DNA from: Candidatus Collierbacteria bacterium | GTDB lineage: Bacteria; Patescibacteriota; Microgenomatia; UBA1400; MFAQ01 | NCBI GenBank assembly: GCA_903884375.1 | Contig: CAISER010000025.1 | Location: 1,637 to 65,636, forward strand | Direction: 5' to 3' | Length of the DNA: 64,000 nucleotides | Notes under the pieces: generated by a model | What the model was told of the DNA's origin: nothing | Seen by the model: the letters and a program-made list of their open reading frames with translations, nothing else | Database searches by the model: none | Program-made: the position numbers and the translations under genes | Shown here: piece by piece, positions 11,210 to 52,404 of the stretch | Position numbering within the stretch: the first letter of the stretch is position 1 | Layout: each line of letters opens with the position of its first letter

Positions 11210-11743
11210 TTAGGCTTTGGTTTTAAGTTCTTTTAAGAGTTTGTATTTCTTGGCAAGTGACTCAACCTGTTTTAAAGCTTTGAAGGTGGCTCTAGCGTTG
11301 GTAGTCTTGTTGTTTGATCCAAGGGCTTTACAGACAATATCAGTGACTCCTGCGGCCTCAACAACGGCACGGATTGAAGAACCGGCGATGATGCCTGTAC
11401 CTTTAGGAGCTGGACGGAAGAGAACTTTACTGGCACCAAATTTAGAAATGGTCTCGTAAGGGATGGTACCGTTGACCAATGGAACTTGAACCAGATCACG
11501 ATTTCCAAGACGAATGGCTTTTTTTATTGCATCGGCAACGTTTGGGGCTTTGGCCAGACCAAGACCGACTTTACCTTTTTTGTCACCGGTAACGACTAAG
11601 GCAGAGAAAGAAACGTTGGAACCACCTTGAGTCTTTTTACTAACACGGCGAATTTGAAGGACTTGCTCGAAACCATCAGACTGAGGACGTTCTCCTCGGC
11701 CACCACGGTTACTGTTGTTGTTTGAGTTGTTTGAAGGATTCAT
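11210..11743 (-). CDS. rpsE: 30S ribosomal protein S5 (Asn-rich N-terminal extension); directly followed by L15 with no L30 gene
   Basis: S5 dsRBD-like and C-terminal domains; operon position. Confidence 0.93.
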   Translation of the reverse strand: MNPSNNSNNNSNRGGRGERPQSDGFEQVLQIRRVSKKTQGGSNVSFSALVVTGDKKGKVGLGLAKAPNVADAIKKAIRLGNRDLVQVPLVNGTIPYETISKFGASKVLFRPAPKGTGIIAGSSIRAVVEAAGVTDIVCKALGSNNKTTNARATFKALKQVESLAKKYKLLKELKTKA

Positions 11744-14510: not shown

Positions 14511-14734
14511 AATACTTTAGTTATTTGCCAATGTTTATTTTTACTTATGGGTCTCGTATCTTTGAGTTGAACTTTGTCGCCTTCTTTTGCACCAATTTCG
14601 TTGTGAGCAGAATATGATTTATTTACCTTGATACGTTTGAGGTATTTCGGGTGAACTTGAAAATGAACCACGTCAACCACAGCAGTTTTCATCATCTTAG
14701 CGCTTTTGACAGTTCCAATTAGTTGTTTTTTCAT
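14507..14734 (-). CDS. rpsQ: 30S ribosomal protein S17
   Basis: OB-fold S17, position L29-S17-L14. Confidence 0.92.
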
Positions 14735-14735
14735 A

Positions 14736-14933
14736 TTATTTATTATTTGATTTTCCTCCAGAGGCGGATCCGACTTTGGCGGATGATAGCAATTGAGCGA
14801 TTTGAACTTTGGTTTTTTTGTGAGCGTTGGTATTTTTTTCTTGATTAGCTTTAATCTTTAGTTTGATATCAGCCAATTTAATTTTTAACTCGTCAAGGGT
14901 TTCGATGGTGTTCTCCGTCTTTGTTTTAGGCAT
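14736..14933 (-). CDS. rpmC: 50S ribosomal protein L29
   Basis: 65 aa helical protein in canonical position. Confidence 0.88.
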   Translation of the reverse strand: MPKTKTENTIETLDELKIKLADIKLKIKANQEKNTNAHKKTKVQIAQLLSSAKVGSASGGKSNNK

Positions 14934-20706: not shown

Positions 20707-22827
20707 TTATGCGGGATTTTTCAACAACTTGGAAGCAATATTGTTTGGTAGTTCTTGATAATGACTTGGTTCCATATAATATGAGGCACGACCGGCAGTA
20801 AGTGAACGAATAGCAGTAGCATAAGATGAAAGTTCTGAAAGAGGAACAGTTGCCGTAATAACACGTGCGTTGCCTCTTTGGGCAGTACCACCAATTTGAG
20901 CACGTCTGGCTGATAGATCTCCAATAATATCGCCCATATTGGCTTCCGGCGTGGTAACTTCGACTTTCATAATTGGTTCGAGAATAACCGGACCGGCTTG
21001 TTTGACAGCGTCTTGAAGAGCCATAGATCCCGCGATTTTGAAGGACATTTCCGAAGAATCGACTTCGTGGAAACTTCCATCGACAACTGCTACATCGAGA
21101 TCAACCATCGTAAAACCAGCGATAATACCGTTGTCAAGGGCTTCACGAACACCTTTTTCGATAGGATTAATAAATTCACGAGGAATCGTGCCACCAACAA
21201 TTTTATTAGTAAATGTGAAGCCTTCTCCGCGAGATTTTGGAGTAACAATTAAAATACAATGTCCATATTGTCCTCGACCACCCGATTGACGAATGTATTT
21301 TCCCTCGCCTCGAGCTTCTTTGGTAATAGTTTCACGATAAGCAACTTGAGGAGCCCCCGTGGTAGCGTCAACTTTAAATTCACGACGAAGACGATCAACT
21401 AATATTTCCAAATGTAATTCACCCATACCGGCGATGACAGTTTGGCCTGTTTCATGATTTGTTTTAATCTTGAAAGTTGGATCTTCTTCCGCCAATCGTC
21501 CAAGAGCAATATCCAATTTTTCTTGATCTGCTTTTGTTTTTGGTTCAATAGCTAGTGATATAACCGGATCCGGGAAGTCGATTGACTCAAGAACGATAGG
21601 TTTTGATTCGTCACAAAGAGTATCGCCTGTTTTAGTAGCTTTTAAACCAACAATACCAACAATTTCACCTGCTTTGGCTTCTTGAATTTCTTCTCGAGTA
21701 TTAGCATGCATGAGCATTAAACGACCAAGGCGCTCTCTTTCTGACTTACTGGCGTTGAAAACATATGAACCTGCTTGGATTTTCCCTGAGTAAAGACGTA
21801 CATAGGTAACTTTTCCAACATGAGGATCTGCTTGGATTTTGAATGCTAAACCCACAAAGGATTCATCAGGACTGGGTTTTCTTGTTTCGGCTTCTTTGGT
21901 TTTGGGGTTGATCCCTTCTGTGTCGGCAATATCGAGAGGAGAAGGGAGAAAATCGACAACAGCGTCAAGGAGAGGCTGGACACCTTTATTGCGTAGCGAA
22001 GAGCCAGGAAAAACTGGAACAATTTCGTTATTGATGGTAGCTTTGCGAAGAGCCGTTTTAAGATCTGCCATTGAAGGTTCCTCGCCATTTAAGTATTTTT
22101 CCATTAAGACTTCATCGGTTTCGACAATTGACTCGATGAGCTTACCTCTTTCACTTTCACACTCCGACTTCATGTCTTCGGGGAAACCATCGGTAACATC
22201 ATATTTGGCACCGGTTTCGTCACCTTGCCAAATAATAGTTTTTCTTTCCAAAAGAAGCGCGACCCCCTTGAAAGTATTTTCAACTCCAATAGGAAGCGCC
22301 ATGATGGCAGTTTTGGCTCCAAGTTTTTCATGGACATCTTTTATGGTAGCCATAAAATCGGCTCCCAAGACATCCATTTTGTTGATTAGAGCAATACGAG
22401 GTACTTTGTATTTATCAGCTTGACGCCAAACAGTTTCTGTTTGAGACTGAACTCCGCTTCCTGCATCAAGAACAATAATGCCACCATCAAGTACGCGGAG
22501 GGAGCGTTCCACTTCAGCTGTAAAGTCTACATGTCCTGGGGTATCAATAATATTAAAACGACAGTCCTCCTTGATGTTGGCATCAGCTAAAACAGGAGTC
22601 CAAAAAGTTGTGGTGGCAGCAGATACTATGGTGATACCACGTTCACGCTCTTGATCCATCCAATCCATTTGAGTATCTCCTTCATCAATATCACCAATTT
22701 TATAAGTTTTTCCAGTATAAAAAAGAATACGTTCGGTGGTTGTGGTTTTTCCAGCGTCAATGTGAGCAATGACACCAATATTTCTAACACGATCAAGTGG
22801 TACTTGTTTTGAGACGGGTGCAGCCAT
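20707..22827 (-). CDS. fusA: elongation factor G
   Basis: AHIDAGKTTTTERIL G1 motif, 706 aa five-domain EF-G. Confidence 0.96.
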   Translation of the reverse strand: MAAPVSKQVPLDRVRNIGVIAHIDAGKTTTTERILFYTGKTYKIGDIDEGDTQMDWMDQERERGITIVSAATTTFWTPVLADANIKEDCRFNIIDTPGHVDFTAEVERSLRVLDGGIIVLDAGSGVQSQTETVWRQADKYKVPRIALINKMDVLGADFMATIKDVHEKLGAKTAIMALPIGVENTFKGVALLLERKTIIWQGDETGAKYDVTDGFPEDMKSECESERGKLIESIVETDEVLMEKYLNGEEPSMADLKTALRKATINNEIVPVFPGSSLRNKGVQPLLDAVVDFLPSPLDIADTEGINPKTKEAETRKPSPDESFVGLAFKIQADPHVGKVTYVRLYSGKIQAGSYVFNASKSERERLGRLMLMHANTREEIQEAKAGEIVGIVGLKATKTGDTLCDESKPIVLESIDFPDPVISLAIEPKTKADQEKLDIALGRLAEEDPTFKIKTNHETGQTVIAGMGELHLEILVDRLRREFKVDATTGAPQVAYRETITKEARGEGKYIRQSGGRGQYGHCILIVTPKSRGEGFTFTNKIVGGTIPREFINPIEKGVREALDNGIIAGFTMVDLDVAVVDGSFHEVDSSEMSFKIAGSMALQDAVKQAGPVILEPIMKVEVTTPEANMGDIIGDLSARRAQIGGTAQRGNARVITATVPLSELSSYATAIRSLTAGRASYYMEPSHYQELPNNIASKLLKNPA

Positions 22828-22946
22828 ACTTTTTGTTGTTTTGTTTAATTGTATATTTTGACGAAATAAATCTGTCCGTTATTGGGACATATTTCACGAG
22901 CTTAATTTTACCATAACACTATAGCTATGGGTATAAATAATGGCGA

Positions 22947-25007
22947 TTAATGACGGAATCGGTGGCGGGAGAAGTGTTTCGAATTTTGAGATTTTTTTTC
23001 TTGCCGTTTTTGGTGTTTCCCAAAATTACGAAATAGATCCGGAAGATAATCTTTTAACCAATCTTTTTTTACTTCCAAGCAGGTACAAGCAAAAGTTTTT
23101 CCTTGAGGGTTGATAAAGATTTCATTGGCCACTAAGAATGAACCTTTGGATGGATAGCTGTTGAAATAGACAGAGTTGGGATGAATATAAATGTTAGACT
23201 TGGTTCCATCAACTTTTTTATAATAAAATTTATCAGACTTTTGAATTAGATTGCCAATAAGACCAGCCGTAATTGCTTGATGAATGGCATCTTTTCTGAT
23301 AATCGGCTTAGTGTTGGGATCAATATTGATTTGATGGTTGGCTAAGACAGTCAAAATATCCAAACGAACGTTTTTGGCTTCTTCAAGAACTTTTTCGTTG
23401 AAATAATTTTGTTTTGCCCAATCGTCACTGTAACCACTGGCGGCATATGCTTTCCAAATATTGAGCAGAACAATAAAATCTGAGTCGTTATTATTGATAT
23501 ATTGATCATGAGCTTTGTCAGCGAGGATTGCCTGGGCAGCTTCTTGAGGTCTGATAAATAAATTTTTCCCATCTAGAAGAGAAGCAATTATGACTATTTC
23601 ATTGACACAATTTATTTTTGGATCTAACGATTCAATAATCATGCGACCCAAACAAGGTTCTACCGCCAACTCAACTAACCAATCGCCTATTTCGGTAATT
23701 TGGCCTGATTCGTCCAAAGCACCAAGAGAAGTAAGAAGATTTAGAGCTTGAATGAGATTCTCGCTGCCTGGGTGATCCATAAAATCAAAGTTTCCAACAT
23801 TTTCGATGCCGACTTTTTTCATTGCGAGAACAACTTGGGACAAGTTGGAGCGTTGAATTTCAGGCGTTTGATACTGAGGGCGGTGTTTTAAACTTTCTTC
23901 AGTAAATAATCGATAACAATAGCCTGGTGCAGTGCGACCTGCTCTTCCTTTGCGTTGCTCTAAACCACTTATGGCGTGTTCAATAAGTTCTAACTTTTCA
24001 ATCCCGGATTTTGGATCAAACTTTGTTTGTTTAATTAGTCCGGAGTCGATAACGTGAATAACCCCATCGATAGTTACAGAGGTTTCGGCAATATTGGTAG
24101 CAATAATTATTTTTCTTTTGGGTGTAATAGTAAAAATATTGTCTTGCTCTTCTGGGGGTAGCTCTGCATGAAGAGGAAGAATTTCGACATCTGAAGAGCC
24201 CAACATTGCTTCAATTTTTTCAACTGTATCAGCAATTTCCTTTTTACCTGGCATAAAAATGAGAATATCTCCTTCGAGTTTTTGGTCGATGATCATTTTG
24301 ACTTTTTCGGCAGCGCCTTTGGTAAAGTCATAGTTGTAGGGAATTTCATTTTCGTAAAATATTTTTACGGGATACATTTTCCCAGGAATTTCAACCGAGT
24401 TATTGTTATCCTTCATGCCAATGTATTCAGCAAATCTATTCCGCTCAATAGTAGCCGAGGTAACAATGACACGAATAGGATCAACTCCAGCACCCAAACG
24501 ACGTTCGTTGACATCTTTAAGAAGTCCAAGGCAGAGATCAATGTTCAAACTGCGCTCATGAGCTTCGTCAACCATGACAATGGCGTAGTCAGTGAGCAAT
24601 GGGTCAAATTGAATTTTCCTTAATAAAATACCATCCGTCATAAAAGTAATGTCGGTGTTGTCCGTTGTCATGTCTTCAAAACGAATATGGAAACCTACCT
24701 GATCACCAACTTCACATTGCATCATTTCGGAAACACGACTAGTAACACTTCTTGTGGCGATTCTTCTGGGTTGAGTAACTGCGATTCCCCCCTTAAGTTT
24801 GAGCTCGTTTCGAAGTTCAAGGAGAAGAGGCGGTAAACAAGTGGTTTTGCCTGAACCGGTTTCTCCGATAAGAACAAAGTTTTGATGCTGTCTTATTTCT
24901 TGACGCAATAAATTTCTGAGATTGGCGACAGGAAGCCTATCCAAATTTTCAAGAGCATATTCCGACGAACAAATTTGTCGATTAATAGTATTTATTTCAG
25001 GTTTCAT
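22947..25007 (-). CDS. DEAH-box (DExH/RHA-type) ATP-dependent RNA helicase, HrpA/HrpB/Prp43-like
   Basis: motif I GETGSGKTT, motif II VMVDEAHER, motif V TNIAETSVTIDG, motif VI QRKGRAGR, followed by winged-helix/OB C-terminal region; 686 aa. Confidence 0.8.
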   Translation of the reverse strand: MKPEINTINRQICSSEYALENLDRLPVANLRNLLRQEIRQHQNFVLIGETGSGKTTCLPPLLLELRNELKLKGGIAVTQPRRIATRSVTSRVSEMMQCEVGDQVGFHIRFEDMTTDNTDITFMTDGILLRKIQFDPLLTDYAIVMVDEAHERSLNIDLCLGLLKDVNERRLGAGVDPIRVIVTSATIERNRFAEYIGMKDNNNSVEIPGKMYPVKIFYENEIPYNYDFTKGAAEKVKMIIDQKLEGDILIFMPGKKEIADTVEKIEAMLGSSDVEILPLHAELPPEEQDNIFTITPKRKIIIATNIAETSVTIDGVIHVIDSGLIKQTKFDPKSGIEKLELIEHAISGLEQRKGRAGRTAPGYCYRLFTEESLKHRPQYQTPEIQRSNLSQVVLAMKKVGIENVGNFDFMDHPGSENLIQALNLLTSLGALDESGQITEIGDWLVELAVEPCLGRMIIESLDPKINCVNEIVIIASLLDGKNLFIRPQEAAQAILADKAHDQYINNNDSDFIVLLNIWKAYAASGYSDDWAKQNYFNEKVLEEAKNVRLDILTVLANHQINIDPNTKPIIRKDAIHQAITAGLIGNLIQKSDKFYYKKVDGTKSNIYIHPNSVYFNSYPSKGSFLVANEIFINPQGKTFACTCLEVKKDWLKDYLPDLFRNFGKHQKRQEKKSQNSKHFSRHRFRH

Positions 25008-25117
25008 TTAGGCTGAATTAGATTAACATAAGAAGGTGAAAATATGTATAGGTGTTGTATATATGTATCTAGTGTCGTTAATTAATGATTGATGCGCTTG
25101 ACTGACGGAAAATACAA

Positions 25118-25150
25118 AATAAGCGCCCAATTAAGGGCGCTTTTTAATTT
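25118..25150. terminator. bidirectional intrinsic terminator (GCGCCC-AATTA-AGGGCGC, T-tracts on both strands) ending the small ORF upstream of the helicase gene
   Basis: aataagcgcccaattaagggcgctttttaattt read directly. Confidence 0.6.
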
Positions 25151-25334
25151 ATTCCGGTTCAGAAGGAAATTGAGCCGGGCAGTCGAATTGTCGAAAATCT
25201 GGTTTGGTTTCGGGGAGAGCCTGGTTCTTTGGTAACGATAACAAATCATCGTTACTGTTTTGGGAATTGGTGGCGGGTGCTGCTGGGGCAACGGGTTCGT
25301 TCTTTATAGATTTATTCGGTAGGCGTTTAGACAT
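25149..25334 (-). CDS. small hypothetical protein, 61 aa, Pro/Ala-rich, acidic C-terminus (MSKRLPNKSIKNEPVAPAAPATNSQNSNDDLLSLPKNQALPETKPDFRQFDCPAQFPSEPE)
   Basis: ATG preceded by consensus Shine-Dalgarno TTAAGGAGGT at optimal spacing, own terminator immediately downstream, sits between two terminators inside the str locus. Confidence 0.6.
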   Translation of the reverse strand: MSKRLPNKSIKNEPVAPAAPATNSQNSNDDLLSLPKNQALPETKPDFRQFDCPAQFPSEPE

Positions 25335-25511
25335 TAATACCTCCTTAAGGTGCAAGATTTGGAGATATTTTAGCACAAACACTTATTTGCTAGGTAGGAT
25401 ACAACACAATTTCCTTTTGTCTTTTTAATATCGCTCTCGGTGAAACGAATTATTTGATACATATATCCATAATAAACCCAAACATTTAACTAATCAATAC
25501 CGAATCAATAT

Positions 25512-25545
25512 ATAACAAAACACCCCGTTTCCGAGGTGTTTCTAA
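25512..25545 (-). terminator. intrinsic terminator after rpsG (ACACCCCG-TTTC-CGAGGTGT hairpin followed by U-tract on the minus-strand transcript)
   Basis: aacaaaacaccccgtttccgaggtgtttcta read directly; rc gives hairpin then TTTTGTTATATATT. Confidence 0.5.
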
Positions 25546-25565
25546 TTATTCTATATATTATAGGA

Positions 25566-26041
25566 CTACCATCTAAAATGAGCGAAGGCCTTGTTACTTT
25601 CAGCCATTTTGTGTGTATCTAGCTTTTTCTTGATTGCTGAGCCTGTGTTTTCATGAGCTTCCATGACTTCAGCAGCAAGTTTATCAGCCAGAGTTCTGGT
25701 TGGGTTGTTGGATCTGGCCTTGGCAGCATTCAATATCCAACGAATAGCAAGTGAATCGCGACGCTCCGGACGAATGGGAGTTGGGACCTGATAAGAGGCT
25801 CCTCCAACACGACGAGAACGAACTTCAATGTTTGGTTTGACATTTTCGATAGCTTCAGAAAGAAACTCTAGGCCGTTTTTGCCTGATTTTCGGCAATGAT
25901 ATCAATGGCGGTATAAATTTGTTTGGCAGCAACTGATTTTTTGCCTTCGAGCATACAACCATTAATGATCTTGGATACCAACTCACTTCCGTAAATTGGA
26001 TCAAGTTGAATTTTTTTAGTTGGGGTTTTTTTTGATCTCAT
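25566..26041 (-). pseudogene. rpsG: 30S ribosomal protein S7, interrupted by a +1 frameshift in an A4 (plus-strand T4, 25887-25890) homopolymer; probably a sequencing/assembly indel rather than true gene decay
   Basis: hand translation: frame A gives MRSKKTPTKKIQLDPIYGSELVSKIINGCMLEGKKSVAAKQIYTAIDIIAE then stop; frame B continues KSGKNGLEFLSEAIENVKPNIEVRSRRVGGASYQVP...KMAESNKAFAHFRW stop, together a complete S7; one extra A restores the frame. Confidence 0.7.
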
Positions 26042-26046
26042 ATTTT

Positions 26047-26466
26047 TTATTTAGCAGGAGCTGGACGTTTGGTACCATATTTACTGCGACTGGTGCGACG
26101 TTTTTCAATACCGGCAGTATCAAGCTTTCCTCTTATAATGTGATATTTAACACCAGGTAGATCACGAACACGTCCTCCCCTGATCATCACGATACTGTGT
26201 TCGGCTAAATTATGGCCTTCACCCATGATGTAAGCTGTGACTTCTTGCTTATTTGATAGTCTGACACGAGCAATTTTACGTAGAGCCGAGTTTGGTTTTT
26301 TGGGAGTCATTGTTTTGACTTGAAGACAAACTCCAGCTTTTTGAGGAGATTGAGTCTCGACCATGCGCCGTTTGACTGAGTTAAAACTCTTACGAAGAGC
26401 AGTGGTTTTCACCTTTCGTGCACTAGTAAGACGACCCTTCTTGATTAATTGATTTGTTGTAGGCAT
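26047..26466 (-). CDS. rpsL: 30S ribosomal protein S12
   Basis: [12 protein letters not shown] ... [11 protein letters not shown]12 signature. Confidence 0.96.
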
Positions 26467-26485
26467 AGATGCGTTGTGTATTTTA

Positions 26486-29400
26486 TCAGATATTTTCGAT
26501 TTTTGCTCTCAGTTTGCTCGTGGGAACCAACCGACCAATAATAACGTTTTCTTTCATGCCAATAAGGTGATCTATTTTCCCTTGAACTGCGGAGTCAGTT
26601 AAAACGGAAGTTGTATCTTGGAAAGAGGCAGCCGAAAGCCAGGAATCAGTATGTAAAGCAGCTCTTATAGCACCAAGGATTAAATTGGTAGCGGTAGCCG
26701 GTTCTCCTCCTTGAGCGATAACGGCTTCGTTGGCCATTTCATATAAACCTCGACTAATAACATCTCCTGCGACCAAAGCCGTATCACCGACAGCATCAAT
26801 TCTGACGTAGTCACACATTTTGCGTAGAATAACTTCAAAATGTTTGTCATGAATACTAATACCCTGAGACTCATAAATGGATTGAATTTCTCCAATGAGA
26901 TAGTTTTGAGTTGTACGAAGGCCTTTAATCTTTAAGAGTTGTTTGATATCTACTCCTCCTGAGGCCAATTGAGTGCCAACAGAAATTAAGTCTCCGTCAG
27001 CAACTTTAAGCGACATGGCAAGAGGAATAAGATATTCTTTTCGATCTTCTTTGGCTTTGCTACTTGGAGTGATAGTAACCAAATTACCGTTTTCTGTTTC
27101 AACAACTTTTACTTTTCCAGAAACTTCAGCAATTGGAGCAACCAACTTGGGAGTTCTGACTTCCAATAATTCTGTTACGCGAGGAAGTCCTTGGGTAACG
27201 TCGACGCCTGCAGCACCTCCTGAGTGTTTGGTACGCATAGTGAGCTGAGTTCCAGGTTCACCAATGGATTGGGCGGCAATGACACCAACCGGATCGCCAA
27301 CAATGGCAAGAGAATTGGTGGCTGTGTTATGACCATAACATTTGGCACAGAGTCCAAAACGTAGCTTACAGGTTATCGGGGAACGAACTTCGACCTCTTT
27401 AACTCCAGCTGCTTCAATTGCGGAGGCAATTTCTTCTGTTATTAATTCTCCAGCATCAACCAGTACTTTTTTCGTCTCTGGGGCAACAACTTTTTTAACT
27501 ACATAACGATAAACAATACGTTTAGCAAAAATCTTTGGTCTTTCTTCTGAAGTTATTGTAATAAATTCATCAGTACCACATTCTTCGGCACGGATAATGG
27601 CATCATGGCTAACGTCGACCAAACGACGGGTTAAGTAACCTGCGTCGGCGGTACGAAGAGCTGTGTCGGTAAGACCTTTTCTTGAACCTCTAATGGAAGT
27701 AACATACTCGAAGATTGAAAGACCTTCGCGGAAGTTGCCTTTAATTGGAAGTTCAATTAAATTGCCTAATGGATCAGCAATAAGACCACGCATGGCGGAA
27801 AGTTGTTCGATTGAGTTTTTGGTAACACGACCGGAGGCAGAGTCAATAACTAGACGAATTGGATTAACTTTTGAGAACGTTGCCCAGGTTTTTTCTGCCA
27901 AATCAGAAGCTGTTTCTCGCCACATATTAATGGTTAATTTGCTTCTTTCACTGTCGGTTATCAAACCTTGTTTGTAGTTATCTTCAATTTCTTCGGCTTT
28001 TTTGTTTCCTGAAGAAATAAGTTCCGATTTTTGGGGATAAACTTCGTTATCGGAGATGGCAAATGAGAAACTACTGATAGTGGCATATTCAAAACCAATA
28101 TTCTTAACAGCGTCAATCAATTTAACAACACGTTTGGTGTCACAAGTTTTGATAGCGCGGGTGAAGAGGGCGGAAATTTCTTTACCGGTAAAACTCTTGT
28201 TCTGGAAATCCCATTCTTTGGGAAGAATGTGATTAAAGATAATACGACCGACGGTAGTGTTGGTCATAACCATCTGTTCCGGATCAAGACGAACATCAAT
28301 TGGTTGACGAACTTCTACAACTTTATTTTGATATGCGGTAATCGCTTCCGTTGGACTACCAAAAGGATATTTATAAGGAGTTAAAGTTTCATCAATTGAA
28401 GTGAGATAGTAAACACCAACGGCCATTTCTTTACGTGAAGGAATATTGACACTTTGTCCCGAAGAGGGTTTAAGAAGATTGAATTGGGGCAACATGAATT
28501 TTTTGGCCTCACGAATAGCTTTTTTGGTTAATGGTACATGAACAGCCATTTGGTCTCCATCAAAATCAGCGTTGAAACCTTCACAAACAACAGGATGTAA
28601 TCGAATAGCAGAGCCATCGACCAGTACAGGTAAAAAGGCAAGAATTGAAAGTTTGTGGAGTGTGGGAGCGCGGTTTAAGAGTATTGGATGTTTTTTGGTA
28701 ATTCTTTCCAAAATGTCGAAAACCTCAGGTTGACGTTTTTCGATGAGAGCTTTTGCAGCTTTGACGTTTGGCGCCAAGTCTTGCTTGATGATCTCGTGAA
28801 GAACAAATGGTTTGAACATTTCAAGAGCCATATCTTTGGGAAGGCCACATTGATTAAGTTTAAGTTCCGGACCAACGATGATAACGGAACGACCTGAGTA
28901 ATCAACACGTTTTCCAAGAAGGTTTTGACGGAAACGGCCCTGTTTTCCACGAAGCATGTCTGAAAGGGACTTGAGAGTTTTACCCGTTCTGGATCTTCTG
29001 GTAGAACGTGCCTGTGAAGAGTCAATTAAAGAGTCAACAGCTTCTTGAAGCATTCGTTTTTCGTTTCTTAATATAATTTCAGGAGCTCCAAGATCAATTA
29101 AATGTTTTAAGCGGTTGTTGCGGTTGATGACACGACGATATAAATCGTTTAGGTCGGAAGCAGCAAAACGACCACCCGAGAGCTGAACCATCGGACGAAG
29201 ATCAGGAGGAATAACAGGAAGAACTTCCAAGACCATCCATTCTGGTTTTACTTTTGAATCAAGAAGGCCTCTTACTACCTGAAGACGCTTGGTGGCTCTG
29301 ACACGTTTCGCTTCTGAGCTTGAGAGAGATTCTTCTTTAAGCTTGACGGCCATCTCTTCAAGATTAACTTTCTTAAGGGCGTCCAAAATTGCCTCTGAAC

Positions 29401-30193
29401 CCATACCGGCAGTCATCCAATCTACAAGGTTATATTCGGCGAGTTTGGCGTATTCCGAGTCAGACAGAAGAGAATTAACTTGAATTTTTTCAATAATGAT
29501 AGCGAGTTTACTGTAGATTTCTTCAGTGAATGCCAATTCGACGACCATTTGTTCACGGAGACTGGCAATTTTTTGTTTGGTTTCGACTTTTAAGTCTTCT
29601 GACTTAAGTTCGCGTTCGTCTTTGGCTTTGGATTTTTTCTTTACTTCAGTAAGTTCTTTTTTACCTTCGTCTTTTATTTCTTCAATTTGCTTGTCAAAAT
29701 TAGCGCGAACTTCTTCAAGTTTGGCATCTTTTTGGATTGTAATATCTTTTAGAGCTGCTTCTCTTTTTTCTTCATCAACTGACATGATGAGGAACTTACT
29801 AAAATAAATTACCGAGGTAAGTGCTTTAGGAGAAATATCCAATAGTAGAGAAAGTTTACTGGGGGCGCCTTTGAAAAACCAAACATGGGCTACTGGAGCT
29901 GCTAAATTAATGTGACCCATGCGTTCACGACGAACACGACTGAGTGTTACTTCAACACCACATTTGTCACAAATGATACCCTTGAATCTGACTCTTTTAT
30001 ATTTACCACAATAACACTCCCAGTCCTTAACTGGACCAAAAATTCTTTCACAAAAAAGACCATCTTTTTCCGGTTTTTGAGTTCGATAGTTAATGGTTTC
30101 CGGTTTGGTAACTAAACCGTGTGACCATTTTCTAACGTCATCCGGACTGGCAAGTCTGATTTGTAATCCTGAAAAATCGACTATGTTATTCAT
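26486..30193 (-). CDS. rpoC: DNA-directed RNA polymerase subunit beta' (with Lys/Glu-rich lineage-specific insertion near residues 135-260)
   Basis: zinc-binding CxxC..CxxC N-terminus, NADFDGDQM catalytic motif, 1235 aa. Confidence 0.96.
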
Positions 30194-30198
30194 GTGAT

Positions 30199-33100
30199 TT
30201 ATTGATTTTGTTCTTCATTAGTAACACCCGCTTCAGCGGCCTCTTCCGAAACTTCTTCTTTTTCAATATCGGCCTCTTCTTCATCTTCAAAAGTGGCGGC
30301 TTGAAGTTCTTCGCTCATAGCTGTTGCTTCGGAAATTACAGCGGCAACTTCCGGTTTTATAGAAACGGCTTCTTCTTCTGCAACTTCAACTGAACCGGTG
30401 GGAACAATGGCAAGGCCAAGAGAATTTAATTCTTTAACAAGAACTTTAAAAGACTCTGGAACCGATGACATTGGAATGGTTTCGCCTTTAACTATTGATT
30501 CAAAAGCTTTGGAACGGCCAACTACATCGTCGGATTTGATTGTAAGCATTTCTTGAAGTGAGTAGGCAGCTTTGTGTGCTTCGAGAGCCCAGACCTCCAT
30601 TTCTCCCAAACGCTGACCACCCATTTGAGCTTTACCTCCTAATGGTTGCTGAGTAACAAGACTATAAGGTCCTATCGAACGGGCATGAGTCTTGTCTTCG
30701 ACCATGTGATTTAACTTGATGATGTAGGAAACACCAACAGCGGTTTCTGCTTCAAATGGTTCACCAGAACGACCGTCAAATAGTTGAATTTTCCCGGAAA
30801 CTGGAAGGTTGGCTTCTTTTAAGGCGTCAGCGATTTTGGCTTCAGATACATTTTCAAATACTGGAACAGAATAACGTTTGTTTAATTTACTTCCGGCAAA
30901 ACCGAGCTGAGCTTCAAGCAATTGACCTAAGTTCATACGAGCCAGTACGGAAAGCGGAGAAATAATAATATCAACAGGAGTACCATCAGCCATGTGAGGC
31001 ATATCGGCGGTGGAAACTATTTTACTGATAACTCCTTTATTTCCATGTCGTCCGGCGACTTTATCTCCAACGGTAATTTTTCTTAGTTGAGCAACTTTTA
31101 TTTTGATTTGTTTGATGACACCGGCGTCAAGTTCATCTCCCTCATCACGGTCTAAAATACGAACGGAGATAACGACTCCTTGTTCACCATGAGGCATACG
31201 AAGTGAGGTGTCTCTCACCTCTCTTGCCTTTTCACCAAAGATAGCACGAAGTAATCTTTCTTCTGCAGTAAGTTCAGTTTCTCCTTTGGGGGCAATTTTC
31301 CCGATAAGAATATCGTTTGGGCCAACAACGGATCCAATAGCGATAATCCCTTCGTGATCAAGATTTCGAAGGTCTGTTTCGGCAACATTAGGAATGTCTC
31401 GTGTCAACTCTTCAGGTCCTAGTTTGGTATCCATAACATCACAAGTGTGTTCGTGAATGTGAACTGAGGAGAGTAAATCCTGACTTACACAACGATCAGA
31501 AACAACAATGGCATCTTCATAACCCAAACCCTCAAAAGCGGCATAGGCGATTAAAAGATTTTGTCCAAGAGCTAGTTCACCTTTTTCAGCCGCAGGACCG
31601 TTGATAATAACATCACCTTTTTTAATTTTATCGCCAACATCAACGAGAGGATGTTGGTTGTAAGAAGTATCTTGAGAAGAGTTGTGATATTTTCTGATAT
31701 TGTAGGTAACTATGTCTTTGTTTATTTCGACAAAGCCATAATCAAAAGGCGAGATACTGGATGTAGCAGTTTTGGCATCAATATCAGAAAGTTTAAGAGA
31801 AATATGATCAGCATCAACAGAAATTACTTCGCCGGCAAAAAGAGATTTAATTGACCAACCCATACTTTGAGCAACAACGTTTTCCATACCTGTTCCAACG
31901 ATAGGAGCAGATGGTTTTACCAAGGGTAATGCTTGAGTTAGGTGGTGAGTGCCCATGAGAGCACGAGTGCCTTCGTCTTGTTGGATGAAAGGAATAAGAG
32001 AAGCAGAAGTACCAACAACCTGACGAGGAACGACATCGATATATTGAATTAAGTCAGCGTCAACTTCAATATATTTTCCTCTAAAACGAGCCGGAACCCA
32101 TTTTTGAGTGATGACGTCACCTTCACGTTCAATACCGGCATGAGTGATATAAGCATCTTCTTCGTCATCAGCAGCTAGATAAGTAATCTCTTTACCGATA
32201 ACCATTTTACTTTTACCTCCCTTGGTAATTTTTTCGACTTTAAGATAGGGTGATTCCAAGAAACCATAATCATTAACTCGGGTGTAGAGAGCAAGATAAG
32301 TAACCAAACCAATGTTTGGACCTTCTGGAGATCTAACCGGGCAGATACGAGAGTACTGAGAAGCATGAATATCACGCATGGAGAAACTGGCTCTTTCTCT
32401 GGTGATACCTCCCGGTCCCATAACGGAGATACGACGAAGGTTATCAATTTCGGATAATGGATTAACTTGATCAAGAATAGAAGAAAGTCTGTTTCGTCTA
32501 AAAAATTCAGTAATGGCAGAGATAATAGGACGAGGGTTAACAAAAGCGGCGGGGGTAGGAAGTTCATCTGGTTTGGCAAGAGACATCTTTTCTTTAATTG
32601 AACGTTCAAGCCTTAATAGTCCTGCCTTAAAAGCAGTTTGATTGACTAACTCGCCCACACAACGCAATCGACGATTAGCCAAGTGATCGATATCATCAAC
32701 CTTGCCATGACCGTTTTGTAAACCAATGAGATATTTAATAGAACCAACAAAATCATCGATGGTCAAAGTAATATGCTGTTTATCTACTGGAGTCGCTAAG
32801 CCAAGTTTACGACTCATCTTGTAACGACCGACAAGTCCTAGGTTGTAACGGCGAGAATCAAAAAACATTTGATGGAGTAAAGCTTTGGCATTTTCGAGAA
32901 CAGCCGGTTCACCGGGACGAACTTTTTGATAAAACTCGAGAAGAGCTTCTTCGGTGTTTGTAGTGGTGTCTTTTTGAAGAGTGGTGGCGATATATTGATG
33001 GTCTTTGTCGACATCAACGTCGGTAAAAAGTGCCAAAATTTCTTCGTTGGTACTAAAGCCTAATGCACGAAGTAGTGTGGTCGCAGATACTTTACGATGG

Positions 33101-33642
33101 CGGTCAATCCTGACAGAAACGTGATCATTACGACTGACAAGTACTTCCAACCAAGAACCGCGCATTGGCCGTATTTCAGCTTGGTGAATAGCACGACCAG
33201 AGTGAGGGTCAACTTCACGGGTGAAGTAGGCTCCTGGAGATCGAACTAACTGGTCAACGACTACACGTTCGACACCATTAATAATAAAGGTGCCTGTGGT
33301 TGTCATCATGGGAATATCGCCAAGGAAGATTTCCTGTTGCTGACTATCTTTTGAATGAAGGTTAGTAAGTTTGACGGTTGCCCAAAGAGGAGCTTCAAAA
33401 GTAACACCTTTTTCAATGGCTTGTTTGGGGGTTATTTTGGGAAGTCCAACACGATTGGAAAGAAATTCAAATTCAAAAACCTTACCAGTAAAATCTCTAA
33501 TTGGATTTAACTCGATCAACGATTCACGTATACCATCTTCGATAAATTGTTTGTATGAGTCTAATTGAATTTGAGTCAAATTCAATTCTGGTAATACCGG
33601 GTTTATAGTTCCCCAGTTTTCACGATTGGTTTGTTTATTCAT
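30199..33642 (-). CDS. rpoB: DNA-directed RNA polymerase subunit beta (acidic about 60-aa C-terminal tail)
   Basis: conserved beta-subunit blocks throughout; start placed at ATG MNKQTNRENWG... (ORF-track start at 33705 is a GTG and adds 21 residues with no similarity to beta N-termini). Confidence 0.93.
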   Translation of the reverse strand: MNKQTNRENWGTINPVLPELNLTQIQLDSYKQFIEDGIRESLIELNPIRDFTGKVFEFEFLSNRVGLPKITPKQAIEKGVTFEAPLWATVKLTNLHSKDSQQQEIFLGDIPMMTTTGTFIINGVERVVVDQLVRSPGAYFTREVDPHSGRAIHQAEIRPMRGSWLEVLVSRNDHVSVRIDRHRKVSATTLLRALGFSTNEEILALFTDVDVDKDHQYIATTLQKDTTTNTEEALLEFYQKVRPGEPAVLENAKALLHQMFFDSRRYNLGLVGRYKMSRKLGLATPVDKQHITLTIDDFVGSIKYLIGLQNGHGKVDDIDHLANRRLRCVGELVNQTAFKAGLLRLERSIKEKMSLAKPDELPTPAAFVNPRPIISAITEFFRRNRLSSILDQVNPLSEIDNLRRISVMGPGGITRERASFSMRDIHASQYSRICPVRSPEGPNIGLVTYLALYTRVNDYGFLESPYLKVEKITKGGKSKMVIGKEITYLAADDEEDAYITHAGIEREGDVITQKWVPARFRGKYIEVDADLIQYIDVVPRQVVGTSASLIPFIQQDEGTRALMGTHHLTQALPLVKPSAPIVGTGMENVVAQSMGWSIKSLFAGEVISVDADHISLKLSDIDAKTATSSISPFDYGFVEINKDIVTYNIRKYHNSSQDTSYNQHPLVDVGDKIKKGDVIINGPAAEKGELALGQNLLIAYAAFEGLGYEDAIVVSDRCVSQDLLSSVHIHEHTCDVMDTKLGPEELTRDIPNVAETDLRNLDHEGIIAIGSVVGPNDILIGKIAPKGETELTAEERLLRAIFGEKAREVRDTSLRMPHGEQGVVISVRILDRDEGDELDAGVIKQIKIKVAQLRKITVGDKVAGRHGNKGVISKIVSTADMPHMADGTPVDIIISPLSVLARMNLGQLLEAQLGFAGSKLNKRYSVPVFENVSEAKIADALKEANLPVSGKIQLFDGRSGEPFEAETAVGVSYIIKLNHMVEDKTHARSIGPYSLVTQQPLGGKAQMGGQRLGEMEVWALEAHKAAYSLQEMLTIKSDDVVGRSKAFESIVKGETIPMSSVPESFKVLVKELNSLGLAIVPTGSVEVAEEEAVSIKPEVAAVISEATAMSEELQAATFEDEEEADIEKEEVSEEAAEAGVTNEEQNQ

Positions 33643-33778
33643 CCGTTTTTGGATTGTAAGGAAAGCTAAATAACAATGGACAACATACAAAAACCTGACC
33701 GACACAAAATCCAGCCAAGTTTATAGCAGTGGCACAAGGATATCATAATATTGAGGCCGTTGTCAACCTGGAAATTTC

Positions 33779-34768
33779 TTAATTATTACAGTCTTTTTGA
33801 AGATAGACACAAATGTTATTGTGGTGCTGTTCTATTGTATTGGCAAAGTGAATAATGCCTTTTGTATCATGAAGATAAAACCAGGCAGAAGTTTTTTTAG
33901 GAGAAGCTGCAGCTTTTATGGCAGCGGCGCCAGGATTACATATTGGTTTTGGTGGTAGACCTTGATTTTGATATGTATTGTAGAGAGATTTTATTTGAAG
34001 ATCGGTATTTGAAAGACTTTTAGGCCACCAGTCACAGACTAAGTTTTTGCATCGGGCGGAAGAAAGAGCAAACTGAATAGTGGCATCAATCTGAAGAGGC
34101 CATTTGGCAGCGAGTCTGTTTTCTATTACTCCGGCAATTTCAGGCATTTCTTCTGCTGTGGCGGCTTCCCTTTCTAGAAGTGAAGCTAATATAAGAATAC
34201 TGTTTTGATCTTGTATATTAATTTTCGCTTCATTTAATACATCATTAAATCGGTTTTCCAAACGAGTGATAATGTCCGAAGTGCTGTCTTTGGGATCAAA
34301 ATCGTAAGTATCTGGAAATAACTTGCCTTCTTTGTTTTCAGTTTGATTCATAAATTCCGTCAAGGAAAAAGTTTTTCCTTCAATGTTTTTGAAGGCGTTG
34401 TCAAAAATGAGAGCGATTTCTTGGCGTCTTAAACCTTCCGGAATTGTAACTCTAACTTGTTTGGTACTGGCATGAGTGAGTGCTTTGGCAATGTCGGTAA
34501 TACTCATATTGGGAGAAAGACGAAAATATCCGGCTTGGACATTACTGCTAATTCCCATGGTAACAACGGTAATTTTAAATGCACTTCTGGATCTTATTAA
34601 TTGTTTGGTGCTTAGTTCCTGACCGATGCGATCGATACCCCATCCTGACACAATTTCGAACTCGACAGAAGGCAGCTGTTTGTACGTAACCGGTCTAGTG
34701 GCAAGGTAAAACCAACCAAAAAATGCGATGGCGATAAAAACAAGGGCGATAAAAAGACGTTTAAACAT
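33779..34768 (-). CDS. mltG: endolytic murein transglycosylase MltG (YceG-like)
   Basis: N-terminal TM anchor then YceG-like domain; 329 aa. Confidence 0.7.
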   Translation of the reverse strand: MFKRLFIALVFIAIAFFGWFYLATRPVTYKQLPSVEFEIVSGWGIDRIGQELSTKQLIRSRSAFKITVVTMGISSNVQAGYFRLSPNMSITDIAKALTHASTKQVRVTIPEGLRRQEIALIFDNAFKNIEGKTFSLTEFMNQTENKEGKLFPDTYDFDPKDSTSDIITRLENRFNDVLNEAKINIQDQNSILILASLLEREAATAEEMPEIAGVIENRLAAKWPLQIDATIQFALSSARCKNLVCDWWPKSLSNTDLQIKSLYNTYQNQGLPPKPICNPGAAAIKAAASPKKTSAWFYLHDTKGIIHFANTIEQHHNNICVYLQKDCNN

Positions 34769-34772
34769 GTGA

Positions 34773-34979
34773 CTAAACTTCGCTTAAAAGGGCACGTCTG
34801 TAGGTTTTTGTCTTTGGGTTATAGATAAAAATACGGCCACATTTACAAGTAACCTGATTGCATCCTTTTATTTTATTTGAAGGAGTACTTTCGCCTTCAA
34901 TTAAAGGTGTGCCACAACCAACGCAGGAACCCTTGGAAAGAAGCCAGGCTTGAACCGGAGCAATAATATTCTTAAACAT
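34773..34979 (-). CDS. small zinc-ribbon protein (CxxC ... CxC), function unknown
   Basis: CVGCGTPL ... CNQVTCKCGRIF; 68 aa; 4 nt from mltG. Confidence 0.5.
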   Translation of the reverse strand: MFKNIIAPVQAWLLSKGSCVGCGTPLIEGESTPSNKIKGCNQVTCKCGRIFIYNPKTKTYRRALLSEV

Positions 34980-35001
34980 ATTTATATTGTATCAGTAGTG
35001 A

Positions 35002-35400
35002 TTATGACAAAAGATTTTCGAGGTAATCTTCCAGAATAATGGCGGCGGCGGTTTGATGTTCACTTTTTTTTCTTTTGACGATGGTTTTTCCGGTTACTTT
35101 TAAAAGACTTCTCGCTGAACGAGAAGAAAGATCTTCGGAAAAGAGAACTATCTCGCCGGAGAAAATTTTTTCCAGTTCGGATTTGACGGCATCAGCATAC
35201 TCAACCAATGGACCATGAGGGGGAATGCCGATAACAATAGTATCAGGATGGGTCTTGACGATTAAGGGGAGAAGTTTACCTATGAGCTTATCAATCTTTG
35301 ATTCAAAGATTGTCGCCAAAGGTTCTGCCAATATTCCTTCACGAGAAATGGCTAAACCGGTGTGGACAGTACCGACATCAAGACAAAGAATTGTGGGCAT
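35002..35400 (-). CDS. ruvX: putative pre-16S rRNA nuclease / Holliday-junction resolvase-like YqgF (RuvX)
   Basis: MPTILCLDVGTVHTGLAIS RNase H-fold N-terminus. Confidence 0.8.
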   Translation of the reverse strand: MPTILCLDVGTVHTGLAISREGILAEPLATIFESKIDKLIGKLLPLIVKTHPDTIVIGIPPHGPLVEYADAVKSELEKIFSGEIVLFSEDLSSRSARSLLKVTGKTIVKRKKSEHQTAAAIILEDYLENLLS

Positions 35401-35502
35401 AATTTATTATAGTGTAGATGATTATCCCATCTTTTCTTTCCCTGTCCATTATTCCTTTATCTATCGGCTCAAAGAGTGTTAGAAATAATTTAGCGAGGGA
35501 GG

Positions 35503-36255
35503 TTAGTTTTCGATTAAGGAACCCTCAACTACCAAGCGACGTAGTGTGGTTCCAGGAGGGACACAGGTCACTACTTTTATCGTTTTGGAATTGTAATTTT
35601 GTTTTAATACCCAGAGTTCAGAGGGTTTTACTTCAATTACTTTGGTAACCCGGTAGGTGTACTCTTTGTCATTGTATTTGACGAATATGTCCGAGCCAGG
35701 TTTTATTTTTGGAAGATTGGAAAAAATAGTGGTGTATTTTTGTGCATCAAAAAATTGGGGAAGGGTGGAATGGCCAAAAATAACCGGTGAGCCGACCTGC
35801 CCAGGAAGAGCTGTTTGAGGATACTGAACCAGATGTTTAGTAAGATCTTCATCAAAAAGACTAACTTTTGCTTCTGCTAGACCGAGAGAGGGAATCGAAA
35901 TGGTATAAAATTCCGGAATTTCTCCATCATTTTCGATAGGTGAATTGAAAAGCTGATTTTGAGTACTACCTGGGAACCAACTACTGGCTTTGGTGTAGTC
36001 TAAATCACTTAATACTTTGGGTTCACTATCCGAATTTGCTTTTGATTCGTAGTAAACAGGTGACAACAAACCTTGGTCTTTTGAGTTGAAAAGATTTATA
36101 TCTTTAAGCTGATAACTGACAACCGGATAAATAACTGCACCAAGAATCCCAAGCCCCAAAGCAGAAATTAGAGTAGGAATTGTTTTTAGATAGATAGGAA
36201 TTTTTTTCCCGGGATGCGGATTTTTTGCCGTAGCCTTTTTGTACCCGTAGAGCAT
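35503..36255 (-). CDS. sortase-family transpeptidase with N-terminal membrane anchor
   Basis: catalytic His context VIFGHSTL and TLxTC-like motif IKVVTCVPPGTTLRRLVV near C-terminus. Confidence 0.7.
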   Translation of the reverse strand: MLYGYKKATAKNPHPGKKIPIYLKTIPTLISALGLGILGAVIYPVVSYQLKDINLFNSKDQGLLSPVYYESKANSDSEPKVLSDLDYTKASSWFPGSTQNQLFNSPIENDGEIPEFYTISIPSLGLAEAKVSLFDEDLTKHLVQYPQTALPGQVGSPVIFGHSTLPQFFDAQKYTTIFSNLPKIKPGSDIFVKYNDKEYTYRVTKVIEVKPSELWVLKQNYNSKTIKVVTCVPPGTTLRRLVVEGSLIEN

Positions 36256-36256
36256 A

Positions 36257-38434
36257 TTATTTCTCTTTCAGCTCAAACTTGATGTTTTTTAGAGGAATAT
36301 AGTTGGCAAAAACAGGAATTTTGGGAGATATTCTGATGGTCAGATGGTCAAAACCTTGGATTGTGGTAAAAAAAGGACGAATATCGGCGGCCGGTTTCCC
36401 TTTGATAAATCCAGCAGTTTTTATCTCATCAATTTTAGGAAAAAGACTGGTTTCCACATTTATTTTGGCTTCATAGAAACTTCCTTTATTGGTGGGAGTT
36501 TCAAGTTTCATGGAAGTGTTACCGGGAAAAATTTCCGAACCGGAAGAAATTTTTGGAGAAAGCTGATTCGAAACTAACTGAAATAATCCGTCTTCGGAAT
36601 AAACAAGTGTTTCAACAGAACCTTCTAAATCAAGGTTGAGAACGGTGGCTTCTTCACCAACATTTTTATCAAAAGTTTTTTTGGTATAGGTAAAATCAGA
36701 CAGGGCTAAGGATTTATAACCCGTTGTTTGATCCCCTGTCGATGATTGAATCTGGGACGTTATCTTTTCACCAGCGATTTGAAGTAATTTTTCTTGATCA
36801 ATTTTCGAAACTGCTTGAACAGCTCTCGACGTACCACCGGAAAAGTCTGAGTCCGCCACAGCTACAATGGTGTTTTTTGAGTAGTTATCAACTGAAAAAG
36901 CAGAATTTTTGGGTAGATTGTGATCGGCACCAATTTTAGTAGCAGTTACTTTTACGCCTGAGGCAATTCCATAAGCACCCTGAACAATACCGACATCGGC
37001 GCTTTTGGAAGCGATGGTAATAGCCTCAGTAATGAGATAAGAATATTTGCCATTATCAGATAAGATTGAAGCACCTGATTTTAGAATAATCGGAGCAGTT
37101 GATTTGTTGGCGACAGTGATAATACCATTAGCTTTATCACCAACTGTTGCTTCTCCAGTGGTTGGAATTTGTTCTTTGGCGGAACCGAAAACTGTTTTTT
37201 TGGTGGCAAGTAGAGTTGGCGAACCGGAAATAGTGCTCTCGGCTATTGAAATTGAAAATTGATCGTTAATTTTTTCAGGTTTGAAATATATAGAGATGAT
37301 TGCTTGGCCGGTAAAAAGATAAAAAACAAAGCCTAAAATCAAAAATGCGGGAATAATAAGAAGATATAACCAGGAAAATTTACTTATTTTTAAGTTTGGA
37401 AAGTGAAATTTGGGTAATGAAGGAAGGGGTAGGGTATATTTTTGTTTGGGAGTTTTTATAAGAAGCGGTTCTTCGGGTTCAATAGCATATTCCGATTCTT
37501 CAGGTTCCGTTACCGATTCTATAATTGGCTCGGGCGGAGCTTTTTCAAGTGAGTCTGGAGCGGTTGATTCTTCGTAAGAAAAACCCAATTCACTTATAGA
37601 AGATGGTGTAACTTCGGGGATATAAATATTTGTTTCTTCTCGCGGAAGACTTTCTTCGTGAGTGTCTTCGATAACTTGCCCGGTAAGGTACTGAACAGCT
37701 TCGGTTCCTCCGGTGAGAGCAATGGCTTTAATACTAAAATCAACTGCCAATACTTCAACTTTTGGCATGTGCTGAAAAGGAAGGCGTTCTTGCCACGGAT
37801 GTGAAGTTATTCGTTGTTCCTCTTCTTCCAAGACTCCACCGTTAGTGAGAATAAAACGAGTGGGAAGTTTTTCGTGGCCGATCACGGTAAGCCCTTCTTC
37901 TACATCTTGTGCGAGGTCATCTGACCTTGCAGCTTCTTCTGAAGAAGTAATTTCACCTTTTTCTATAATTGAAACAACAACTTTGGTGGTATAAATCTCT
38001 AACAGAATAGCTGTCGGAGGAATACCTTCAAGTTTTTTCATGTAATGGGCAATTGCCGAGTTTATGGGAACCATACCAATCGGGTTAAGGCCCAACTCTT
38101 TTACCAGTCTGGCAATAAGTTTCGTTTTTGAAGGATGTATTTTGCCGTCATGTATCCAAGAATCCGGCAAACCAAAAATGACTTTACGCGGTTCTGCTTT
38201 AATTATTTTGACAGCTTGTTCGAGAGAGGCATCAACACCATTAATAAGTGAGTCTTCATCGGTCCAAGACTCAAATGAACCGACACTTACAACCGAAGGA
38301 TTGCCATTGGCAATTTCCCAAAGGGCGGTTTTGATTAAAGATTCATGGATTTCGATGGCCAAAAAATATTCCGGTTCTGTGGATTTTGATTTGTTCCCAA
38401 ATAGATTTACAAGATTCATGACGACAGTCGTCAA
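36257..38434 (-). CDS. fusion protein: cytoplasmic FtsA/PilM-like actin-fold domain, acidic Pro/Glu linker, single TM helix, about 350-aa extracytoplasmic beta-rich domain
   Basis: N-terminal YFLAIEIHESLIKTALWE...VVSVGSFE resembles FtsA/PilM phosphate-1 region; TM FSWLYLLIIPAFLILGFVFYLF; translationally coupled (ATGA) to alaS; next to sortase. Confidence 0.5.
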   Translation of the reverse strand: MTTVVMNLVNLFGNKSKSTEPEYFLAIEIHESLIKTALWEIANGNPSVVSVGSFESWTDEDSLINGVDASLEQAVKIIKAEPRKVIFGLPDSWIHDGKIHPSKTKLIARLVKELGLNPIGMVPINSAIAHYMKKLEGIPPTAILLEIYTTKVVVSIIEKGEITSSEEAARSDDLAQDVEEGLTVIGHEKLPTRFILTNGGVLEEEEQRITSHPWQERLPFQHMPKVEVLAVDFSIKAIALTGGTEAVQYLTGQVIEDTHEESLPREETNIYIPEVTPSSISELGFSYEESTAPDSLEKAPPEPIIESVTEPEESEYAIEPEEPLLIKTPKQKYTLPLPSLPKFHFPNLKISKFSWLYLLIIPAFLILGFVFYLFTGQAIISIYFKPEKINDQFSISIAESTISGSPTLLATKKTVFGSAKEQIPTTGEATVGDKANGIITVANKSTAPIILKSGASILSDNGKYSYLITEAITIASKSADVGIVQGAYGIASGVKVTATKIGADHNLPKNSAFSVDNYSKNTIVAVADSDFSGGTSRAVQAVSKIDQEKLLQIAGEKITSQIQSSTGDQTTGYKSLALSDFTYTKKTFDKNVGEEATVLNLDLEGSVETLVYSEDGLFQLVSNQLSPKISSGSEIFPGNTSMKLETPTNKGSFYEAKINVETSLFPKIDEIKTAGFIKGKPAADIRPFFTTIQGFDHLTIRISPKIPVFANYIPLKNIKFELKEK

Positions 38435-40329: not shown

Positions 40330-40677
40330 TTATATTGGCCGAAAGGGGCGAACAGAAGGAGGTGCCGGGGGAGGAACTTCCCCCAAAGAAACATTGGGGC
40401 CTAATACTTCAGTACTGTGAAAATCATAGGTAGAATGATGAGGTGTTTCCTCCGGAATTATTATAGGAGTTCGTGGAAGTTCTGGTTTATCTTGATGAAT
40501 TAAATTATCAGGAATTTTTTTATATTTTTCAGGTATGGAATCAAGAACTTTTTTGACAACCTTACGGCCTTCTTCAGTGCCAAAAAGTAAGGCAGCAATG
40601 ATACCTATAGTGGCTCCCATAGCAAAGGAAGAAAAATGATGATCGGTGGCTTTATTAGATGGAGTCATTGTTTTCAA
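40330..40677 (-). CDS. YtxH-like small membrane protein
   Basis: MGATIGIIAALLFGTEEGRK TM-then-charged pattern; start uncertain (internal ATG at 40620 possible). Confidence 0.5.
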   Translation of the reverse strand: MKTMTPSNKATDHHFSSFAMGATIGIIAALLFGTEEGRKVVKKVLDSIPEKYKKIPDNLIHQDKPELPRTPIIIPEETPHHSTYDFHSTEVLGPNVSLGEVPPPAPPSVRPFRPI

Positions 40678-52066: not shown

Positions 52067-52131
52067 ATCGGGTTGTATTGTAACAGATGTATTTCGTTTT
52101 GCCAAGACTGAACTGTGCGTAAAGAAAAAAT

Positions 52132-52389: not shown

Positions 52390-52404
52390 ATTAACTATAT
52401 TATA

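Follow-up and report, generated by a model that had tools for sequence, protein, structure and literature searches.

Within the window analysed here, a stretch of 64,000 nucleotides (64 kb), ribosomal protein S7 is encoded in two reading frames, neither of which is complete. S7 is a universal primary 16S-rRNA-binding protein. The interruption of its gene, rpsG, raises the question whether the organism carries a damaged, divided or recoded gene, or whether the deposited sequence lacks a base that is present in the cells. The initial annotation of the locus had described rpsG as split by a single-base frameshift in a homopolymer, and had placed the affected run at plus-strand TTTT (25887-25890).

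Translation of the minus strand located the break (Table 1). The S7 ATG is at 26041 (minus strand), and the frame that it opens (frame 0) reads MRSKK...IDIIAENQAKTA*, with the TAG at 25868-25870. This frame can be read as MRSKKTPTKKIQLDPIYGSELVSKIINGCMLEGKKSVAAKQIYTAIDIIAE, then NQAKTA, then TAG, and thus as a 57-codon ORF composed of 51 authentic S7 codons and 6 out-of-frame codons. The remaining 107 S7 residues are encoded in the -1 (equivalently +2) frame as KSGKNGLEFLSEAIENVKP...AFAHFRW*, with its TAG at 25566-25568 (minus strand); the same frame up to this stop reads KSGKNGLEFLSEAIENVKPNIEVRSRRVGGASYQVP...NKAFAHFRW. The interval 25566-26041 comprises 476 nt, a length of the form 3n+2. A tblastn search of the window with the repaired S7 protein placed residues 1-61 in one frame and residues 52-158 in another, the latter at 100% (E = 3e-70). 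The same search detected no second S7-like sequence in the 64-kb window, and thus no alternative rpsG copy there. These results confirm the single-base split and the coordinates of the TTTT run. The accompanying statement that the gene ends after 51 codons needs correction: the authentic S7 sequence ends there, but the ORF ends after 57 codons.

Table 1. Features of the rpsG locus in the window (position 1 is the first nucleotide of the window).
Feature	Coordinates	Strand	Evidence
rpsL (S12), intact, directly upstream of rpsG	26047..26466	-	Pfam PF00164; identical protein on 7 contigs
rpsG 5' segment	25868..26041	-	ORF translation; tblastn, residues 1-61 of repaired S7
Frameshift box, the sole stretch open in both frames	25871..25901	-	Direct reading of the sequence
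Missing-base site, AAAA here and AAAAA in siblings	25887..25890	-	Alignment and blastn indel lists
rpsG 3' segment, S7 residues 52-158, -1 frame relative to the ATG	25566..25889	-	Translation; tblastn
Terminator-like hairpin, 11 pairs, GAAA loop, T-rich tail, 24 nt past the rpsG stop	25517..25542	-	

Any frame change would have to fall within the frameshift box, a stretch of 31 nt between a -1-frame TGA (25902-25904) and the frame-0 TAG, because only this stretch is open in both frames. Insertion of one A at the AAAA run yielded a 158-aa protein that matched the Pfam family PF00177 (Ribosomal_S7) over profile positions 1-148 of 148 (E = 1.5e-55, 187 bits, cut-off 24 bits). The initial annotation had claimed that a complete S7 is recovered only by adding an A to this run. 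The recovery of a complete protein holds, but the exclusiveness does not: a base added anywhere in the box restores the ORF, so that translation alone does not fix the site, and an A added to the AAAAA run at 25876-25880 likewise gave 158 aa. The site was fixed at the AAAA run by comparison with other assemblies.

In order to find contigs of other assemblies from the same population, we used the S12 protein as an exact-match anchor. The contigs retrieved in this way encoded an identical S12, followed by a called S7 of 158 aa. Contig L003 (ENA ERZ18643896, 4,044 bp), aligned with window positions 25424-29466, showed no mismatches and a single gap, where it has AAAAA and the window has AAAA. Contig L002 (ENA ERZ18644181, 5,865 bp; window 23048-28919) also has AAAAA at the rpsG site, and differs from the window only by a scaffold N-run and by this same single base. 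The third sibling, L001/L084 (Logan assembly, run SRR22250822), represents a strain with 99.5% identity to the window along an alignment of 17.8 kb (22406-40193). Here, too, the run is AAAAA, and according to blastn the sole indel of this strain inside a gene relative to the window is the rpsG site; the other four indels of L084 are all located in the non-coding spacer after rpsG. The sibling alignment thus places the gap in the GAAAA(A)T run, where loss of the fifth A turns GCC GAA AAA TCA into GCC GAA AAT CA.

For two further contigs only gene calls were considered. One encodes a 158-aa S7 and the other a partial S7 cut at 68 aa by the contig end, which is longer than 57 aa and therefore extends past the position of the premature stop in the four-A allele. 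An exact look-up found the intact 158-aa S7 on five contigs and the 57-aa stub on one of 85,242 bp in NCBI and ENA, presumably the window's own source. The frameshift is thus in the public record, and it is private to one assembly. Three short contigs over the L14 region were 100% identical to the window. No match to the site, with four or with five A residues, was found among JGI metagenome contigs, a collection that does not include this population. When EF-Tu, SecY and a 725-aa ORF of the window were used for exact-protein look-ups, nothing on record was returned, likely because the ORF taken from its first start differs from the called gene; RpoC and L14 worked in their place.

The comparison with L084 also yielded an observation on strain variation. 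The window and L084 differ at 88 positions over the 17.8 kb, and 35 of these are concentrated within about 150 bp (window 25460-25605; L084 approximately 14590-14740). This segment comprises the last 13 rpsG codons, where the differences are mostly synonymous apart from S-to-A and A-to-S replacements, as well as the terminator hairpin, and has the appearance of a small patch that is recombined or hypervariable. The N-run of L002 lies near window 26624-26631, inside rpoC and close to its 3' end. Like an N-run in L016, a locus of a related species, it looks like a scaffold gap or masking rather than biology.

The nearest species representatives in the genome collection belong to Candidatus Collierbacteria (Microgenomates, Patescibacteria/CPR), with S7 identities of 75-93%. 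We examined 30 related species representatives, of which 29 were readable, and all 29 encode S7 in one 477-nt frame. Comparison with orthologous rpsG genes, a check that the initial annotation had suggested, thus found the gene uninterrupted both in the siblings (L001, L002, L003 and L084) and in all readable representatives, and interrupted in the window. A 629-nt S7 match in L016 (3671-4299) was considered as a possible insertion and rejected, as it contains a run of N inside the gene. At the nucleotide level, the site varies freely among the relatives (GAACAGTCC, GAGCAATCT, GAAAAAACA and others), indicating that only the protein is conserved there.

The residues around the site distinguish between the possible repairs. 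Restoration of the fifth A in the AAAA run gives AEKSGKNGLEF, and the alternative repair in the second run gives AENQAKNG. In the 29 relatives, residue 52 (K, Q, E or A) is preceded by A or G and then by E, Q or A, and is followed by S, T or A at residue 53 and by G or K at residue 54, with A instead in L032. Repair at the 25876-25880 run was rejected, as it yields NQA at residues 52-54 and as the siblings put the gap in the other run. None of the 29 relatives has Q at residue 53, and no Collierbacteria-like relative has N at residue 52 or A at residue 54; the latter was seen only in L032, the most distant locus. As a side observation, S7 sequences of the Collierbacteria type (75-93%) occur in many records titled "uncultured Pseudomonadales bacterium" or "Spirochaetia bacterium" (L004, L007, L009, L012 and others; L006), and these titles look taxonomically wrong.

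The genomic setting of rpsG is that of a str operon. On the minus strand of the window, which has 40% G+C, rpoB, rpoC, rpsL and rpsG are followed by a gene for a DEAH-type helicase, by fusA and tuf, and by a long S10-spc-alpha cluster. Only 5 nt separate the rpsL stop from the rpsG ATG, and the gene calls of L001-L003 show the same gene order. The spacer between rpsG and the helicase gene contains a 77-aa ORF (25149-25382, minus strand) without Pfam match, flanked by two terminator-like hairpins, the one after rpsG (25542-25517) and another at 25142-25121 that begins 7 nt past the stop of the ORF. In L001/L084, a 61-aa gene was called in this spacer. The helicase itself (686 aa, DEAH/HrpA-like, 22947-25007, minus strand) has DEAD, Helicase_C, HA2 and OB_NTP_bind domains, and is placed between rpsG and fusA, within the normally contiguous str operon. 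By tblastn, it was detected at the same position in 10 of the 30 related species loci, nine of them among the closest relatives (S7 identity of at least 85%) and one (L023) at 78%, and was absent from the fetched flanks of the other, more distant Collierbacteria.

We also asked whether the assembly is error-prone elsewhere, as the initial annotation had proposed checking for other homopolymer frameshifts. A greedy ORF map covered 95% of the window, and rpsG was the only place where two short ORFs of the same strand occupy a gene-sized gap. Pfam was searched with essentially all remaining ORFs of at least 60 aa (about 70). No other split gene was found among them in the 64-kb window, and no family was split between adjacent ORFs. 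The expected matches of intact genes were obtained for ribosomal proteins, RpoA/B/C, EF-G, EF-Tu, SecY, IF-1, IF-2, NusA, DnaK/DnaJ/GrpE, PNPase, RNase J, FtsK, AlaRS and LepA, and most of them reach both ends of the profile. Several candidates for second split genes (40330-40677 with 40655-40954, 33779-35400 and 51776-52461, as well as overlapping pairs of ribosomal protein ORFs) were dismissed, because Pfam assigned them to separate full-length families or to none that is shared. The window contains 1,527 homopolymer runs of at least 4 bases and 610 of at least 5. In the approximately 20 kb covered by independent contigs, the rpsG site is the only indel within a gene, and relative to the contigs of the identical population (about 8 kb) it is the sole difference at a determined base. 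These findings speak against a generally error-prone assembly and give no sign of the systematic homopolymer error of raw long-read data. They indicate a single, isolated error; that no others of its kind were found argues for isolation and not against an error as such.

The survey of the window yielded some further observations. The S5 gene (11210-11743, minus strand) is followed after 5 nt by that of L15 (10755-11204, minus strand), without an intervening L30 gene; CPR bacteria typically lack L30. Between L15 and secY lies a 167-aa ORF (10188-10691, minus strand) with a sub-threshold match to DUF2284, a predicted metal-binding family (23.3 bits against a cut-off of 25). The 725-aa ORF (36257-38434, minus strand; 720 aa as called in L084) has no Pfam family and is located directly upstream of a sortase gene (35503-36255, minus strand). 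A quick search found no LPXTG-type motif in it, so that it is not an obvious sortase substrate. The alanyl-tRNA synthetase ORF (38431-40269, minus strand) is short (612 aa), with a catalytic profile match of 1-436 of 552 and a SAD domain. IF-2 (53321-54724, minus strand) is also short (467 aa) and begins directly at its GTPase domain.

Several explanations of the four-A run have to be weighed. If it were true of living Collierbacteria, S7 might be made by recoding. One possibility would be unusually efficient, unprogrammed slippage of the ribosome by -1, with Lys-tRNA slipping on A_AAA_A (25876-25881) or Asn-tRNA on A_AAU; the other would be the addition of an A by RNA polymerase within a very short A run. 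A CPR bacterium would then tolerate a freshly arisen indel in the gene of an essential ribosomal protein. The initial annotation had named a real +1 site as its alternative. This direction is wrong: as one base is missing, rescue needs a -1 (or +2) shift, and the downstream frame is -1/+2, which does not fit a prfB-type +1 shift; a CUU_UGA-like motif is also absent at the site. The overlap of both frames across two short A runs would suit slippage, and errors are known to arise both by slippage of a single tRNA on A-rich codons and by insertion of A at A/T runs (PMC5009743; PMC5574713). However, a codon-by-codon reading of the box (AUC AUU GCC GAA AAU CAG GCA AAA ACG GCC UAG) revealed no X_XXY_YYZ heptamer in phase. 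The nearest approach, A_AAA_ACG, is not a slippery heptamer, because the A-site codon ACG cannot re-pair as AAC, and only the P-site Lys-tRNA could re-pair. No Shine-Dalgarno-like (GGAGG-like) sequence was found in the 15 nt upstream of the site, and no downstream structure was evident: the predicted fold of 25800-25905 (106 nt, nested base pairs only) had a minimum free energy of -19.6 kcal/mol versus a mean of -20.0 kcal/mol for shuffled sequences (z = 0.13), of which 105 out of 200 folded as well as the native one. The A runs in the box, of 4 and 5, fall short of the known transcriptional realignment sites, which comprise more than 7 A or 8 T residues in a row (PMC3711429), and the frequency of slippage insertion drops exponentially with shorter runs (PMC5574713). 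Antonov et al. (2013) require a conserved site of at least 7 nt in several genomes for a frameshift to be called programmed (PMC3711429); a frameshift was found in none of the 29 readable related species and in none of the three siblings, and the nucleotides of the site are not conserved. Slippage on the five-A run would moreover put NQA instead of KSG at residues 52-54, a combination that no relative has, and error-level slippage could hardly supply a stoichiometric ribosomal protein. There is no sign of recoding at the rpsG site, and we regard this explanation as very improbable.

The presence of two ORFs might also suggest a genuinely split gene, with S7 made as two separate polypeptides. 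However, the first start codon (ATG, GTG or TTG) that the -1 frame offers downstream of the box is the TTG at 25733 (minus strand), so that the 3' segment is untranslatable on its own. An independent start would be possible for the last 55 residues only, with loss of residues 52-103, and no relative has a split S7. The lack of a start codon effectively refutes this explanation. More serious, though still unlikely, is a real deletion in the DNA: a loss-of-function allele in some or most of the sampled cells, without special rescue, such as a deleterious mutation of recent origin or a minor variant that entered the assembly. True indels commonly arise by replication slippage in A/T runs, and the lack of other homopolymer errors in the assembly leaves a technical cause without independent support. 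Against this, the deletion would inactivate S7, of which the window holds no second copy. Over about 6 kb, every determined base of the flanks is the same as in the five-A contigs, so that the allele would have to be extremely recent, and it is found on one contig versus an intact gene on at least five. An assembly or basecalling indel, the reading favoured by the initial annotation, agrees best with the three independently assembled contigs that have five A residues and with the single occurrence of the stub. Only one assembly is affected, and the length of one homopolymer is changed by one. The repair in the AAAA run fits the residues of the 29 relatives, all of which have S7 in one frame, the repaired protein spans the entire Pfam profile, and the classification of Antonov et al. 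(PMC3711429) points the same way.

Judged from these sequence comparisons, the four-A run is an isolated deletion of one base that only this assembly has, and very probably an error of the consensus or the assembly, without recoding. The rpsG gene of the organism would be an ordinary uninterrupted gene of 158 codons. The deposited contig would have lost one A from the five-A run, splitting the frame after codon 51, and the loss, confined to one assembly, would reflect an error at a homopolymer. We infer that the deletion arose in sequencing or assembly rather than in cells, and the frameshift is almost certainly not a real biological feature. The lesion bears on no open biological question, and the value of the finding lies in flagging an error in the record, which gives an essential universal marker gene the look of a pseudogene. 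It would lower completeness estimates and drop S7 from ribosomal protein phylogenies of this Collierbacteria genome, and it might be misread as recoding. The annotation is corrected once the fifth A is restored at the missing-base site.

With dnaX-type -1 frameshifting (A_AAA_AAG with an upstream Shine-Dalgarno-like sequence and a downstream hairpin), rpsG shares the -1 direction and the A-rich overlap, but it lacks the tandem slippery heptamer, the stimulators and the conservation. The dnaX shift, moreover, gives a second, shorter product and does not repair an essential gene. The prfB gene (RF2), with its +1 frameshifting (CUU_UGA_C and an upstream Shine-Dalgarno sequence), is likewise a gene of the translation apparatus in two frames. 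However, prfB has an extra base relative to a single ORF, whereas rpsG lacks one, which is the wrong direction, and rpsG has neither the motif nor an in-frame stop at the shift site. Hundreds of genera conserve the prfB shift, and that of rpsG occurs on a single contig. The rescue by poly(A) slippage in Buchnera and Blochmannia (PMC5009743) also concerns essential genes, changes in the length of A runs and small AT-leaning genomes, but the endosymbiont tracts have about 8-10 A residues or more, compared with 4 in the rpsG run and 5 in the intact allele. The case also resembles the homopolymer indel errors that fragment genes in assemblies of draft genomes and metagenomes (Antonov et al., 2013, PMC3711429; PMC12007338), which are likewise single-base changes in A/T runs. 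Such errors are usually numerous in long-read or flow-chemistry assemblies, whereas the rpsG case is the only one found in 64 kb. As in the singleton frameshifts described earlier (PMC3711429), the rpsG change is common to no related sequence, its two halves match one conserved domain, and the gene is essential.
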